The translations under genes were made by a program, and so were the position numbers. From Arcobacteraceae bacterium (GTDB lineage: Bacteria; Campylobacterota; Campylobacteria; Campylobacterales; Arcobacteraceae), in the NCBI GenBank assembly GCA_048268245.1, contig JBLWVX010000003.1:55551-119550 (forward strand): a stretch of 64,000 nucleotides of DNA. Direction: 5' to 3'. Below, piece by piece: positions 15,866-32,444 of the stretch (positions within the stretch are counted from its first letter, which is position 1; the number at the start of each line of letters is the position of its first letter). The notes under the pieces were generated by a model. That model was not told the origin of the DNA and did not search any database. It saw only the letters and a list, made by a program, of their open reading frames with translations.

Positions 15866-16642
15866 TTATAAAACAAAAACTTTTCCATTTTTAATTTCTA
15901 TTTTTCCTGATAGCTCATATTCAAAAACTTTATCATTATATTTTGCTACAGCTTCATCATATAATGGTGAACTCTGACAAAATTCCAAGAAATCATCTTT
16001 TGATGGTACTATAGAGGAAGTATTTGTAAATTCATTTATAAACTTATCTAAGTCATATATGGGTTCAATCAAACCTTTTTGAACAAGCTCTTGTGTTCCT
16101 AAGCTTTCATTTATTCTATGGGGTAGGGTATATACTTTTTTGCCCATTTCAAGTGCGTAATCAACAGAAGTAAGACTACCAGAGTTTAAATCTGCTTGTG
16201 TGACAATTAGAACTTCTCCTAAGGCTACAACTATTTCATTTCTTAGTACAAAAGTATAATTTCGTGCTTTTTGTTTTTCTTCATATGCAGATAAAACTAA
16301 ACCTTTTTGTTCAATACTTGCTATTAAGTTTTTATTCACAGTAGGATATCTTATATCCAAACCATTTGCAACAACTGCTATTGTTTTATAATCTTGAGAA
16401 GCTTTATGTGCTATCGCATCAACACCCATAGCAGCACCACTTACAATAGTTGCACCATGCAAAGAGAGTTTTGAAGAGAGTTTATGAGTAAACTCTTTTG
16501 TATATGAATTGGGTTTTCTTGTACCTACTATAGAAATCATAGGAGTTTGTAGAAGTTGGGTATTTCCAATAGAAAAAAGTTGATGAGGGTACTTTTTCAT
16601 ATTTTTTAATTGGGGGATTTTAAAATCAATAGTTTTAATCAT
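15866..16642 (-). CDS. dprA: DNA-processing protein DprA
   Basis: ISIVGTRK, IVSGAAMGVDAIAH, FVLRNEIV, SGSL. Confidence 0.93.
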   Translation of the reverse strand: MIKTIDFKIPQLKNMKKYPHQLFSIGNTQLLQTPMISIVGTRKPNSYTKEFTHKLSSKLSLHGATIVSGAAMGVDAIAHKASQDYKTIAVVANGLDIRYPTVNKNLIASIEQKGLVLSAYEEKQKARNYTFVLRNEIVVALGEVLIVTQADLNSGSLTSVDYALEMGKKVYTLPHRINESLGTQELVQKGLIEPIYDLDKFINEFTNTSSIVPSKDDFLEFCQSSPLYDEAVAKYNDKVFEYELSGKIEIKNGKVFVL

Positions 16643-20859: not shown

Positions 20860-21228
20860 TTATTCTTTAAGATTTGTAAATAATTTAGGTATTTTATCTT
20901 TTATAATATATTGGCCAATTAAATTGTGTCTTTTATTTATTAAAATTGGGGCTACAAGATTTACTATTGATTTTTCAATAGGGTCTTGAAGTACCACAGA
21001 AAAATATATATCAAAGTCTTCTCTTGATCTTATATGCATTTTCTCTAAGATATCATCTTCAATATTGAAATCAAAAGCAGCATGTTGTAAGTACTTTATA
21101 TTTACAATTGTAAAGTTAATCATATTCTCTTTATCAAGAATTAAAGTTGAGAAATATTCGTCTAGTTTTTCTAAGTTTACTTTTTTAATTTCATCAAATC
21201 CAAGTAAAGGAATAGTAATTTCGTACAT
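20860..21228 (-). CDS. fliW: Flagellar assembly factor FliW-like
   Basis: IPLLGF, EKLDEYF, VVLQDPIEKSIVNLVAPILIN...GQYI match Campylobacterota FliW. ATG at 21228 follows AAGG. Confidence 0.75.
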   Translation of the reverse strand: MYEITIPLLGFDEIKKVNLEKLDEYFSTLILDKENMINFTIVNIKYLQHAAFDFNIEDDILEKMHIRSREDFDIYFSVVLQDPIEKSIVNLVAPILINKRHNLIGQYIIKDKIPKLFTNLKE

Positions 21229-21277
21229 TTGAAGCCTTTTTTGTAGTGACACAATTTTATTGAAAGTATACTTAGGA

Positions 21278-28639: not shown

Positions 28640-28882
28640 ATGGAATTATTATTTGCTAGAAACGAGTTAAATGAAAAACCCAAAAAAGTACAATTAGATA
28701 AGATTAAAGAAGAATTACAAAAAGAGGGTGAAAAAATTTTCTATTTTGATAGAGATAATTCTCACAAAGATATGATGGCATTAGTAGATGCTTTAGAAGA
28801 TGAAGGCTTAAATGTATATTTTAGAGAAGTTAAATACGGTTTAGCTGATGAAGAATATATGTATGAGGTTCATGCACTTTAA
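28640..28882 (+). CDS. HP0268-family small nuclease
   Basis: MELLFARNEL...IFYFDRDNSHKD...YEVHAL. Divergent from nusA and upstream of miaB as in Campylobacterota. Confidence 0.85.
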   Translation: MELLFARNELNEKPKKVQLDKIKEELQKEGEKIFYFDRDNSHKDMMALVDALEDEGLNVYFREVKYGLADEEYMYEVHAL

Positions 28883-28901
28883 TAGAAAGTAGTTTAGCAA
28901 A

Positions 28902-30212
28902 ATGAGTTCAAACAAAAAATTATTTATTCAAACTTTAGGGTGTCAGATGAATGACACTGATAGTCAACACATTGCAGCTGAATTAGAAAAGCATAAAGAT
29001 TATACTCAAACTGAGCAAATTGAAGATGCTGATTTAATTATAATTAATACATGTTCAGTAAGAGAAAAACCAGTTCAAAAACTTTTTTCTGAAATTGGTC
29101 AATTCAATAAAAAGAAAAAAGATGGAGCTAAGATTGGTGTTTGTGGATGTACGGCAAGTCATTTAGGAAACGATATCATTAAAAGAGCTCCGTATGTTGA
29201 TTTTGTAGTTGGTGCTAGAAATATCTCTAAAATTAAAGATGTTGTTGATGTAAAAGGTGCAGTTGAAATTGCAATTGACAATGATGAGTCAATGTATGAG
29301 TTTGCTGCTGCAAAAACAAATAAATACAGAGCAAGTGTAAATATTTCAGTTGGTTGTGATAAAAAATGTACTTACTGTATTGTTCCAAATACTAGAGGTG
29401 AAGAGATTTCTATTCCACCCGAAATGATTGTAAAACAAGTGCAAAATGCAGTTGATGAAGGTGCAGTTGAAGTAATGCTTTTAGGTCAAAATGTAAACTC
29501 TTATGGTAGAAGATTTTCAGATAAAAGACCTAAATACTCTTTTACTAAACTTTTACAAGATGTTTCTAAAATTGAGGGATTAAAAAGAATTCGATTTACA
29601 TCTCCTCATCCTTTACATATGGATGATGAGTTTATTGAAGAATTTGCAAAAAATGAAAAAATCTCAAGATGTATTCATATGCCATTACAAAGTGGTTCTA
29701 CTTCAATTTTAAGAGCTATGAAAAGAGGATACACAAAAGAGTGGTTCTTAAATAGAGCAGCTAAAATGAGGGAATTAGTTTCAAACCTTAGAATTACAAC
29801 GGATATTATTGTTGCATTCCCTGGTGAAACTAATGAAGATTTCCAAGATACTTTAGATGTTGTAAGAAAAGTAGGATTTGATCAAATTTTTAACTTTAAA
29901 TACTCACCTAGACCTGAAACAGCAGCATTAGATCTTAAAGATCAAGAAATTCCAGATGAAATTGGAAGTGCAAGATTAACAGAGTTAATTGAACTTCATA
30001 AAAGACATCTTGAAGAAGAAATGCCAAAATTAGTTGGCTCTACTGTAAATATTTTAGTTGAATCTTTAAAACCTAATGGTGAGATTTCTGGATATACTGA
30101 TAACTATCTTCAAGTATTTGCAAAAGGTAGTGATGAACTATTAGGTAAATTTGTGGATGTTAAAGTAACAGATGTAACAAGAACAGCTTTAAAGGGTGAA
30201 GTTATAGCCTAA
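28902..30212 (+). CDS. miaB: tRNA-2-methylthio-N6-dimethylallyladenosine synthase
   Basis: TLGCQMN, NTCSVRE, radical SAM CDKKCTYC, LGQNVNSYG, C-terminal TRAM domain. Confidence 0.97.
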   Translation: MSSNKKLFIQTLGCQMNDTDSQHIAAELEKHKDYTQTEQIEDADLIIINTCSVREKPVQKLFSEIGQFNKKKKDGAKIGVCGCTASHLGNDIIKRAPYVDFVVGARNISKIKDVVDVKGAVEIAIDNDESMYEFAAAKTNKYRASVNISVGCDKKCTYCIVPNTRGEEISIPPEMIVKQVQNAVDEGAVEVMLLGQNVNSYGRRFSDKRPKYSFTKLLQDVSKIEGLKRIRFTSPHPLHMDDEFIEEFAKNEKISRCIHMPLQSGSTSILRAMKRGYTKEWFLNRAAKMRELVSNLRITTDIIVAFPGETNEDFQDTLDVVRKVGFDQIFNFKYSPRPETAALDLKDQEIPDEIGSARLTELIELHKRHLEEEMPKLVGSTVNILVESLKPNGEISGYTDNYLQVFAKGSDELLGKFVDVKVTDVTRTALKGEVIA

Positions 30213-30823
30213 TGAAGCTTTTCTTTAAACTAAAAATATTACCATACTTCTTATATTTTTTAGTTAGATTAATCTATGCTACAAACAAAAAAGTTTATCA
30301 TCATCCAAAATTAGGTGATGAAGCTTTTGTTTTTGTTATGTGGCATGGAGATCTACTTAGTCAACCTTTTAATTACAAAGCCCAAAGAGGTAATAGAGTA
30401 GTAAAAGGTATGATTAGTTTAAATAAAGATGGAGAAATACTATCTAAAGTTTTTGCACTTTTAGGAATAGAAGCATTAAGAGGTTCTTCTTCTAAAGGTG
30501 CAGCTAAAGTTTTAATTAGTACAATTAAGGAAATTAAATCAGGAAGTGACGTAGCTATTACTCCTGATGGTCCAAGAGGGCCTAGATTTTCTGTAGCAAA
30601 TGGTGTTGTAGCCATCGCTCAAAAAAGTGGTTCTAAGGTTGTTGTATTAAACTCAAAACCAAGTAAATATTGGCAGTTTAATTCTTGGGATAAGTTTATT
30701 TTACCTAAGCCTTTTGGTAAAATAGATTTTTATATGTCAGAACCTTACGATATTAGTAACTTACAAATGGATGAAGCAAAAGATTTTATAAAAGAAAAAC
30801 TAATGGTTCATTCAATTAAATAG
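30212..30823 (+). CDS. DUF374 lysophospholipid acyltransferase-family protein
   Basis: FVMWHG, RGSSSKG, ITPDGPRGP, SWDKFILPKPF. Confidence 0.9.
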   Translation: MKLFFKLKILPYFLYFLVRLIYATNKKVYHHPKLGDEAFVFVMWHGDLLSQPFNYKAQRGNRVVKGMISLNKDGEILSKVFALLGIEALRGSSSKGAAKVLISTIKEIKSGSDVAITPDGPRGPRFSVANGVVAIAQKSGSKVVVLNSKPSKYWQFNSWDKFILPKPFGKIDFYMSEPYDISNLQMDEAKDFIKEKLMVHSIK

Positions 30824-30839
30824 TTTAAATAGGAAATAT

Positions 30840-32402
30840 ATGTTTAGTAAAGAGTCTTTATATATTAATGCAATTAAATATGATACTCAATTAAAGCTAG
30901 ATTATAAAAAACTAGATGATGAGCAGATAATAGAAGCGAATAATTCAGTTTTTTTAGTTAAAGATGAGATTTTATCCCATGAAATTGCACACAAAATTAA
31001 TGCATCTCAAAAGCAAACACCTTTAAGCTATATTTCTACTTTACTTATTAGTGATACTACAAAGTTAATTCCTAAATCAAGTAAAAGGCCAATTGATTGT
31101 GAAATAGTACATTTTAATAATGAATATGATATTGCTGTTTTAAAATCTACTCTTTTTGAAACAGAACACTATTTTGAAAAAACAGGTATTGATTATATTT
31201 ATTCTGCTTTTCACATTTTAAATCTTCATATTGAGCAAAAAGTATGTAAAAATCAGCTTTTGATTTTTTTATTTAATAATAAGGCATTTATTTTAATTCT
31301 TGATGATAAATCAAAGATTGTATATAGTAAGACAGTTGAACTTCCAACTTTTGAAAGTGTTAAAAAAACACACTTTTACGATGATGATGTAGTGGGACAA
31401 AAACTTTTTGATGAAATTTATTATTTAGAACTAAGTGAAATAATTCACAATAATTTAAATGAGTTTTATGAGAGTGAGTCTCAAACATTTATTGATAAGA
31501 TTACTATTTTATATACTTTAAAACAACTAAGCCAAGAGCAAATTGATAATTTAAGTAATGAACTATTACTTACAATAGATTATCAACCAATAAATATTGA
31601 TGAAGAAATTTTTGAATTATCAAAAGATAAACATCACAAACAAAGCTTTATAAGCCCAAGAAGGAAAGAGAAAAAGAATAATTACTTTAGTATATTAATA
31701 GTATTATTTTTTGCACTGGCCTTTTATGGAGTTTATATTTTATTTGATGAAGTATCCCACAATAAGACTCAAGAAACTAAAACCCAAAAGAATATAAGAA
31801 GTGAAGTTAAACTTCCTGATCATGTTAATAAAAACGATAGAATAACAAAAAGGATAAAAGCTATTTTTGACTCAATTCCTTATGATGTAGTATTGAGTGA
31901 AATGGTTGTAGATGGTGATGCTTTACTTTTAAAAGCTAAATTTTTAAAAGACGATACTTTTATAAAGTCGCTTCAACCTGAACTTGGTTCACTTTATGAA
32001 ACAATAGAAGTTGAACTAGATTCTAAAGATAAAAAGCATTTTGTAGATGGTACTGTTATGGCTAAAGATTTACTTGATTTAGAGGACATTAACTATAGAA
32101 AATATAATAATAAATATATTGTTGATGAATTTTTCCCTATTTCAAGAGTGACAGAACAATTAAAAATCTTAATGCCTGAAAATGCTATAGTAAAATTTCA
32201 ATCAAGTCAAAATAAAAAAGTCACAGTTTTTAACTATTTAATTAATATTGAGATTTCTACACCTAAAGAATTTTTTGATTTGATTGACATGATAAATAAT
32301 GAACTGTATTCAATTACTATCTCATATCCTATAAGTATGATAAAGAATGATGAAGGTAAGTTAGATATTGAGTTTAATGTACAATTTAATCAACCTCAAT
32401 AG
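30840..32402 (+). CDS. Bitopic membrane protein, predicted PilM-PilN-PilO-like fusion
   Basis: About 270-aa cytoplasmic PilM-like part, basic SFISPRRKEKK, single TM at aa ~282-302, PilN-like IFDSIPYDVVLSEM, PilO-like C-terminal domain. See findings. Confidence 0.6.
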   Translation: MFSKESLYINAIKYDTQLKLDYKKLDDEQIIEANNSVFLVKDEILSHEIAHKINASQKQTPLSYISTLLISDTTKLIPKSSKRPIDCEIVHFNNEYDIAVLKSTLFETEHYFEKTGIDYIYSAFHILNLHIEQKVCKNQLLIFLFNNKAFILILDDKSKIVYSKTVELPTFESVKKTHFYDDDVVGQKLFDEIYYLELSEIIHNNLNEFYESESQTFIDKITILYTLKQLSQEQIDNLSNELLLTIDYQPINIDEEIFELSKDKHHKQSFISPRRKEKKNNYFSILIVLFFALAFYGVYILFDEVSHNKTQETKTQKNIRSEVKLPDHVNKNDRITKRIKAIFDSIPYDVVLSEMVVDGDALLLKAKFLKDDTFIKSLQPELGSLYETIEVELDSKDKKHFVDGTVMAKDLLDLEDINYRKYNNKYIVDEFFPISRVTEQLKILMPENAIVKFQSSQNKKVTVFNYLINIEISTPKEFFDLIDMINNELYSITISYPISMIKNDEGKLDIEFNVQFNQPQ

Positions 32403-32413
32403 ATTTAATAAAA

Positions 32414-32444
32414 GAATTAAAGGTTAATTCCAAACCTTTAATTC
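32414..32444. terminator. Bidirectional terminator overlapping the mqnE stop
   Basis: GAATTAAAGGTT-AATTCCA-AACCTTTAATTC 12-bp stem. Confidence 0.75.

Follow-up and report, generated by a model that had tools for sequence, protein, structure and literature searches.

The 64,000-nt window analysed here, a stretch of contig JBLWVX010000003.1 from an Arcobacteraceae bacterium, carries a gene of one uninterrupted open reading frame (ORF; 30840..32402, + strand; ATG start, 520 aa, taken from the ORF listing) that is best explained as an Arcobacter-type fcpMNO. By this explanation, to which we give a probability of roughly 0.8, the gene is the orthologue of the three-gene fcpM-fcpN-fcpO operon collapsed into one frame, and its product is a subunit of the flagellar motor cage. 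In Helicobacter pylori and Campylobacter jejuni, the part of this cage that lies in the cytoplasm and close to the inner membrane is made up of three proteins, which associate with MotB and, in C. jejuni, with PflD (PMC10823254, PMC11870540). A first-pass annotation of the same DNA had read the ORF as a single-chain PilM-PilN-PilO fusion, and this three-part reading holds, as each segment matches its own split family only.

Profile matches to the split FcpM, FcpN and FcpO families

Profiles of the fusion family (71 sequences, with the window protein as master), FcpM (57 sequences), FcpN (4 sequences) and FcpO (81 sequences) were compared by using hhalign. The split references were C. ornithocola/C. 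lari-group and Sulfurimonadaceae orthologues, used in place of HP0271-0273 and Cj0456c-0454c. The fusion profile aligns with FcpM from residue 4 to 265 (FcpM residues 8-255 of 256; 99.0%, E 2e-18), with the small FcpN profile of four sequences from residue 266 to 403 (FcpN residues 1-158 of 168; 96.2%, E 2e-9) and with FcpO from residue 378 to 519 (FcpO residues 28-167 of 169; 97.1%, E 8e-11). When the segments are compared alone, the scores rise to 99.3% (E 3e-20) for M against FcpM, 97.4% (E 1e-11) for N against FcpN and 98.1% (E 1e-13; residues 424-519 to FcpO 73-167) for O against FcpO, and the N core by itself matches FcpN at 93.6% (E 2e-7).

Matches across families are poor, at 0.1% for M with N or O, 0.5% for the N core with O and 0.6% for O with FcpN. 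The full N segment reaches 29% with FcpO, mostly through its transmembrane (TM) and linker region, and the controls with reversed templates give values of at most 0.6%. The possibility that the O module is a duplicated N module was rejected on the same two values, 0.5% for the N core with O and 0.6% for O with FcpN. The profile comparisons demonstrate three colinear and mutually exclusive family matches, to FcpM, FcpN and FcpO, in one chain. The match to FcpN begins at the FcpN N-terminus itself and runs on through the TM helix; FcpO residues 1-72, which comprise a TM helix and a coiled coil, stay unmatched when the O segment is compared alone.

Organization of the 520-residue protein

The FcpM-like cytoplasmic domain, which is predicted to be of the PilM/actin-like type, occupies aa 1-265 (30840..31634; all parts of the protein are encoded on the + strand) and carries the label DUF8569, to which DUF8341 is added in some members of the family. 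Both labels come from newer Pfam families, PF27038 for DUF8569 and PF27037 for DUF8341, that describe the FcpM protein or domain, as seen at two reference loci (L001:5001-5966 and L002:5001-5774) and in the window (30840-31634). Pfam contains no family for FcpN or FcpO. A second TM segment at aa ~140-170, flagged in 49 members, was rejected as the hydrophobic β-strand core of the M domain; in the window protein this segment lies below the TM threshold and is cytoplasmic by homology.

The FcpN N-terminal peptide follows at aa 266-281 (31635..31682) and bears a conserved S-F-I-x-P-R-x-K motif, which lies only ~6 residues past the M domain. These residues (KQSFISPRRKEKK in the window protein) align with residues 1-16 of Sulfurimonas FcpN (LKHSFIAPRRKK) and are equivalent in position to the N-terminal peptide of PilN to which PilM binds. 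Residues S269, F270, P273, R274 and K276 are invariant across 32 family members. The string SFISPRRKEKK (aa 269-279) directly precedes the sole TM helix (aa ~282-305; 31683..31754), which is the equivalent of the FcpN TM helix. A Kyte-Doolittle scan finds this one hydrophobic segment only (windows starting at aa 280-288), in agreement with the first-pass annotation on both the single TM helix and the peptide before it, and the AlphaFold2 (AF2) model has a helix at aa 282-308. All seven peptide strings quoted in that annotation were found in the protein, at aa 116, 140, 197, 269, 342, 464 and 508.

Beyond the membrane, a short low-complexity periplasmic linker (aa 306-327; 31755..31820) replaces most of the FcpN coiled coil. 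Gaps on the fusion side of the hhalign alignment with FcpN fall here, and residues 309-321 have a predicted local distance difference test score (pLDDT) below 50. The linker leads to an FcpN-type periplasmic core with α-β-β-α-β-β order (aa 328-411; 31821..32072; AF2 pLDDT 80-95). The next 22 residues (aa 412-433; 32073..32138) form an inter-module linker that is unstructured in the model and takes the position at which FcpO would carry its TM helix and coiled coil. The chain closes with an FcpO-type periplasmic core, again α-β-β-α-β-β, that has no membrane anchor of its own (aa 434-519; 32139..32396; AF2 pLDDT ~90). No hydrophobic segment is present beyond aa ~310 in any of 170 full-length members, and the PilO-like end without a TM helix that had been proposed is thus borne out as an FcpO core alone. 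The alignments show that ~72 residues comprising the FcpO TM helix and coiled coil have been lost by deletion, and that the coiled coil of FcpN is shortened. With a single TM helix and the FcpO anchor deleted, each chain spans the membrane once; both periplasmic modules are therefore in fixed 1:1 stoichiometry with the cytoplasmic module.

The fcp locus and its split counterparts

Three genes on the + strand precede fcpMNO in the window and were identified by Pfam. These are an HP0268-family gene (28640-28882; E 8e-35), miaB (28902-30212; MiaB) and lpxJ (30212-30823; DUF374, E 6e-24). The lpxJ stop codon ends at position 30823, which leaves a gap of 16 nt to fcpMNO, and an AGGA Shine-Dalgarno sequence (30831-34) lies 5 nt ahead of the fcpMNO ATG. 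The four genes (the first three at 28640..30823) probably constitute one operon. Upstream of this block are the divergent genes nusA and cysS, and downstream is a radical-SAM MqnC/CofH-like gene that is convergent with fcpMNO.

The most distant informative homologue of the window protein, a 423-aa protein termed P0248, matches window residues 88-390 with a library-wide E of 2.9e-5. Its relatives are stand-alone Sulfurimonadaceae proteins of ~257 aa and a 321-aa protein of C. ornithocola, all of which carry both DUF8569 and DUF8341. In C. ornithocola and Sulfurimonas sp. HSL3-7 these proteins follow nusA(-) and HP0268-miaB-DUF374, and are themselves followed by two TM-anchored proteins of ~170-180 aa. 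This is the fcpM-fcpN-fcpO arrangement, known as pilMNO in H. pylori, that has been described previously (PMC10823254, PMC11870540), and the 520-aa window ORF fills exactly the slot of the three genes. The window, C. ornithocola and Sulfurimonas share one and the same order, nusA(-)/HP0268-miaB-lpxJ/fcp, and HP0268-miaB-lpxJ is also located before fcp in at least 70 Arcobacteraceae loci. The Pfam assignments of the neighbours and the exact Campylobacter/Sulfurimonas synteny establish the place of the gene at the flagellar-cage locus behind HP0268-miaB-DUF374, as stated in the first-pass annotation. Profile matches and synteny together demonstrate membership of the Fcp family.

Three loci carry a gene for an Xer-like tyrosine recombinase of 277-281 aa between lpxJ and fcp (L080:10196-11029, L002:4169-5014 and L003:755-1600). 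They belong to Sulfurimonas and to one deep-branching Arcobacteraceae metagenome-assembled genome (MAG; L080), and the recombinases are 43-45% identical. The fused gene of L080 encodes 541 aa with 27% identity to the window protein. These sequences suggest an ancestral order lpxJ-xer-fcp that was lost by most Arcobacteraceae and persists in L080.

Conservation of the fusion

A search of a collection of 5.8 billion proteins found 416 homologues. Among the best 120 of these, 119 span the whole query and one covers 93% of it, with lengths of 509-546 aa and identities of 54-98%. Homologues with a named source come from Arcobacter, Aliarcobacter, Poseidonibacter or 'Campylobacterota', and 'hypothetical protein' is their sole annotation; precomputed PF27038 (DUF8569) assignments are present on nearly all listed homologues and PF27037 (DUF8341) on a few in addition. 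With phmmer, 135 clusters were matched among 1.84 billion cluster representatives, most of them 510-570 aa in length and ranging down to ~25% identity. Short family matches in this search were not used as evidence for split genes, as most resemble fragments from short contigs. By these sequence comparisons, the ORF did not arise as a reading frame by chance, and the family is small, lineage-restricted and conserved over its full length.

It could be argued that the one-frame gene arose from an error of assembly or sequencing, or that it is a young, pseudogene-like fusion confined to this genome. A genome scan anchored on HP0268, and hence independent of fcpMNO, yielded the 80 most similar loci, all of Arcobacter type and each at species level. 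In 70 of the 80, one unbroken ORF of 517-561 aa fills the fcp slot. This ORF starts 9-30 nt past lpxJ in the 70 loci and, at L080, instead after the inserted recombinase gene. The contig ends inside the gene at three loci and before the position of the gene at four. Moreover, identical DNA with zero indels occurs in contigs of an isolate run and of an oyster metagenome, which are independent assemblies, and a mollusc metagenome holds the same sequence with one substitution. The identical independent assemblies and the 70 intact loci establish that the fusion is no artefact, and the 135 representative clusters at 50% identity, mostly full length, agree with this. No support for an artefact was found beyond one frameshifted and one shorter in-frame version of the gene, which leaves such an origin a practically negligible chance. 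The fusion is thus conserved in 70 of the 80 loci, a point that the first-pass annotation had asked to be checked, and its refuting condition of relatives in which stop codons divide the gene into three is not borne out.

The frameshift, near aa 143-166, is in a long-read MAG (L008; 10217-11810). The shorter version (L049; 4670-6028) encodes 452 aa in frame; query residues ~344-459 are replaced by ~39 residues, with the loss of most of the N core and linker. Both are possibly natural variants or sequencing errors. One Arcobacteraceae MAG (L072; 4359-7409) has HP0268-miaB-lpxJ without fcpMNO, and convergent genes come next. Arcobacter-type HP0268-miaB-lpxJ-fcpMNO is also present in MAGs labelled 'Candidatus Paceibacteria bacterium' (L019) and 'Desulfosporosinus sp.' (L081), labels that likely reflect binning contamination or mislabelling.

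Structure models and relation to Pil and Gsp proteins

The full-length AF2 model has a pLDDT of 67.9 and a predicted template modelling score (pTM) of 0.41, and its N-terminal half is poor. Its best Foldseek matches in the PDB are all actin-like ATPases, with BT_3980 (E 1.2e-3) followed by PilM, ROK kinases and EutJ. The match to Pseudomonas aeruginosa PilM (5eq6) has an E of 2.9e-3. TM-scores of these top matches are low, as is the pLDDT over much of the M domain. The model of the periplasmic part (aa 318-520) reaches a pLDDT of 89.7 and a pTM of 0.85, and consists of two α-β-β-α-β-β modules, a predicted topology of the PilN/PilO type. The high pTM across both modules implies a predicted packing as one unit, and the value of 0.85 is compatible with the intramolecular N-O pairing that had been suggested for the chain, although this dimer remains a prediction. 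The Foldseek list for the periplasmic model is led by collagenase subdomains and low-probability matches to GFP barrels, and does not single out PilN or PilO. The folds expected by the first-pass annotation thus gave only weak Foldseek matches, for PilM (E 2.9e-3) as well as for PilN/PilO.

The window protein has no match in the local Pfam-A and NCBIfam libraries, and no PDB sequence was retrieved by phmmer or profile search with the whole protein, the family alignment or the periplasmic alignment. Pfam PilN (PF05137) is hit below threshold by four of 32 family members (best E 0.009) and by Sulfurimonas FcpN (E 0.017). On the basis of these searches, the family lies outside the sequence reach of canonical Pil and Gsp models, and the kinship between Fcp and Pil proteins is indicated by weak structural signals here and by published HHpred and AlphaFold analyses.

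A proposed role at the flagellar motor

By analogy with C. jejuni and H. pylori, FcpMNO chains would come together in the inner membrane, at the outer edge of the PflA/PflB scaffold that belongs to the polar flagellar motor. The M domain would lie in the cytoplasm, connected through the one TM helix to two periplasmic modules that would pack on each other close to the membrane in the manner of a PilN/PilO heterodimer. The PflD partner would be dispensed with, and the resulting cage would be reduced and membrane-hugging. Across genomes, the distribution of fcpMNO strictly follows that of flagellar gene sets and not that of type IV pili (PMC11870540), and PflD and the type IV pilus genes are scored absent in Arcobacter (PMC11870540, Supplementary Table 4). 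Arcobacter has also lost FlgPQ, FlgVWX and several regulators (PMC9321776), and in the A. butzleri motor the PflAB ring is 16-fold, stators are not resolved and the inner membrane is not linked to the outer one (PMC5758724). An Arcobacter motor that lacks PflD, FlgPQ, FlgX and any connection between the two membranes fits a reduced cage. In H. pylori, mutants in pilNO show increased migration in soft agar.

Several points weigh against this assignment. We infer the placement of the fused protein at the Arcobacter motor by analogy, and the map published for A. butzleri was interpreted without reference to a cage (PMC5758724). PflD is needed for the C. jejuni cage and is absent in Arcobacter, as is FlgX, so the assembly route must differ or the cage may be absent. 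The gene sits with tRNA and lipid A modification genes and not with flagellar genes. On the structural side, residues 1-45, 47-74 and 101-124 of the M-domain model are below a pLDDT of 50, and neither the full-length nor the periplasmic model has a Foldseek match at E <=1e-3. PilO (2rjz_B) appears only at rank 47, with an E of 0.19 and a root-mean-square deviation of 2.2 Å over 73 columns, and no Pfam Pil model (PilM_2, PilN, PilO) reaches its gathering score for the window protein.

Some of these points are shared by an explanation in which the protein survives as a remnant of evolution or has been repurposed in the envelope. After the loss of PflD, FlgPQ and FlgX and the reshuffling of flagellar genes in Arcobacter, it would no longer build a motor cage, and would have some other inner-membrane role that is possibly tied to miaB-lpxJ. 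The absence of cage partners from Arcobacter speaks for such a fate, as do the lack of a described cage-like density in A. butzleri (PMC5758724), the probable co-transcription with non-flagellar genes, and the loss of the FcpO anchor and of the coiled coils to which the cage owes its height. A remnant is nonetheless hard to reconcile with strong purifying selection, which is evident from a mean column identity of 70% in 32 members and from many invariant residues in all three modules. The FcpM-binding-type motif has been kept as well. Linkage to miaB-lpxJ is also found in species whose motor parts are proven, and deletions of miaB and lpxJ there have no motility phenotype (PMC10823254). Given also the co-occurrence with flagellar gene sets (PMC11870540), we regard a remnant or repurposed protein as distinctly unlikely and favour a subunit of the motor cage.

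If such a cage is built, its architecture might depart further from known examples. In this variant, which we rate as doubtful, FcpMNO would form a ring that stays low against the membrane, with no need for PflD or for the three-helix TM bundle of N, O and PflD. The invariant SFIxPRxK peptide may act in trans, docking on the M domain of the next chain to give a head-to-tail polymer. The fusion would then be an adaptive redesign, tied to the dynamic, low-occupancy stators of the Arcobacter type, and not a neutral gene merger. If true, this ring would be a motor accessory structurally unlike the Campylobacter/Helicobacter cage.

Genomic surroundings and the case for a pilus-type machine

A perfect 12-bp palindromic hairpin (32414..32444) lies between the convergent fcpMNO and mqnC-like genes and overlaps the last codons of the latter. 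From its sequence, evaluated by a consensus terminator scan only, it is possibly a bidirectional terminator. The only recognisable flagellar gene among the scanned window ORFs encodes FliW (20860-21252, - strand; Pfam E 3.5e-18), ~9.6 kb upstream of fcpMNO. Its presence within the window implies that the organism has flagellar genes; CsrA, the usual partner of FliW, has been reported lost from Arcobacter (PMC9321776).

At the 5′ edge of the window, 28 kb from fcpMNO, is a gene for a 494-aa secretin with a BON domain (1251-2735, + strand). The secretin falls below each specific NCBIfam cutoff for GspD, PilQ, SctC and MshL, and two small ORFs of 191 and 147 aa ahead of it (226-2735 region, + strand) have no family match. 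The remainder of any Tad, type II secretion or pilus system around it would lie outside the window. Apart from this lone, generic secretin, no pilus machinery was found among the scanned window ORFs of at least 100 aa. A gene for DprA is also present (15866-16642).

The secretin and DprA could be taken to favour an assignment of the PilM-PilN-PilO fusion to the alignment subcomplex of a pilus-type machine, whether a type IV or competence pilus or the system to which the secretin belongs. The Fcp proteins derive from PilMNO, and PilM-PilN fusions are common in the type IV pilus clusters of Campylobacterota (PMC11870540). Set against this are the position of fcpMNO in the fcp slot past miaB-lpxJ, outside any pilMNOPQ cluster, and the specificity of its matches for Fcp-family profiles, with no Pfam Pil model above threshold. 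At its distance of 28 kb, the secretin is not accompanied in the window by neighbouring genes for an ATPase, a platform protein or a pilin, and Arcobacter is scored as lacking type IV pilus genes (PMC11870540). A pilus-type alignment subcomplex is thus, in our judgement, very improbable. Among the three clients that the first-pass annotation had considered, the motor is favoured, but the competence pilus and the Tad system are not. Tad systems are not known to use PilMNO.

Comparison with known systems

The identification of an Arcobacter fcpMNO fusion is correct but already known. A bioRxiv study of February 2025 records a fused fcpMNO for Arcobacter and a fused fcpMN for Nitratiruptor (legends to Fig. 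6b and Extended Data Fig. 10, PMC11870540). Its Supplementary Table 4 lists 'FcpMNO fusion proteins' from A. nitrofigilis (WP_013136617.1, 528 aa), and from A. cryaerophilus (WP_105917137.1) and A. trophiarum (WP_115429067.1), both of 524 aa. These fall in the same length class and at the same post-miaB locus as the window protein, whose relatives are Arcobacter, Aliarcobacter and Poseidonibacter proteins of 516-546 aa. To judge from this comparison with the listing, the window protein is probably a further orthologue of theirs. As the fusion has been catalogued, current understanding is unchanged. No experimental work on fused FcpMNO was found in the literature.

That study flags the fusion only; it describes neither the missing TM helix and coiled coil of FcpO nor the single-TM topology. 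The modest additions made here are accordingly the segment-wise statistics, the explicit finding that FcpO has lost its anchor and coiled coil, the conservation across 70 species-level genomes, the lpxJ-xer-fcp order in L080 and a Sulfurimonadaceae-like M-N fusion outside Nitratiruptor (P0248, at locus L003). Their value lies mainly in annotation, in that 'hypothetical' records and DUF8569/DUF8341 could be renamed FcpM/FcpMNO. As a natural single-chain PilM/N/O-type module of fixed stoichiometry and one anchor, in a lineage without PflD, FlgPQ and FlgX, the fusion is also a convenient handle on the minimal needs of a cage and on the effect of the cage on stator dynamics. The protein could serve as a compact construct for structural work.

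The fusion shares with the split FcpM, FcpN and FcpO (C. jejuni CJJ81176_0481-0479, equivalent to H. pylori PilM/N/O) the genes upstream, the FcpN motif and the TM helix. It differs in being one polypeptide instead of three, with one TM helix instead of two, and in its total length, which is 520 aa compared with 594 aa in Sulfurimonas and 681 aa in C. ornithocola. Partial fusions stand between these forms. Nitratiruptor has FcpM-FcpN fusions of 338-344 aa (PMC11870540). P0248 is likewise a 423-aa FcpM-FcpN fusion, encoded on a metagenomic contig (L003:1587-3364) in a Sulfurimonas-type context of lpxJ, tyrosine recombinase and fcp, and a second such fusion (P0256) has 426 aa. At L003 a separate TM-anchored FcpO of 168 aa follows, and the M part of the fusion is 48-54% identical to stand-alone Sulfurimonadaceae FcpM. 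From these sequences, the L003 fusion looks independent of that in Nitratiruptor. In the two-part fusions, M is joined directly to the FcpN peptide, TM helix and core, as in the window protein; however, these lineages keep a separate, membrane-anchored FcpO, whereas the window protein has absorbed the O core too.

The resemblance to type IVa PilM, PilN and PilO is in predicted fold classes, with two α-β-β repeats in each periplasmic module. Unlike its pilus counterparts, fcpMNO is encoded outside any pil cluster and without PilP or PilQ partners nearby; in Campylobacterota, according to the literature, the PilMNO-type function was taken over by the flagellar motor. The window protein has no sequence match to GspL or PilMN and none to T2SSL or GspL_C in Pfam and NCBIfam, and no gsp genes are nearby. 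GspL of type II secretion combines an actin-like cytoplasmic domain, one TM helix and a ferredoxin-like periplasmic domain in one chain. Both GspL and the PilM-PilN fusions are encoded in secretion or pilus clusters and have no third module of the PilO/GspM type, but they follow the same design logic as the window protein, in which a predicted actin-like domain, a TM helix and a predicted ferredoxin-like domain are joined in series.

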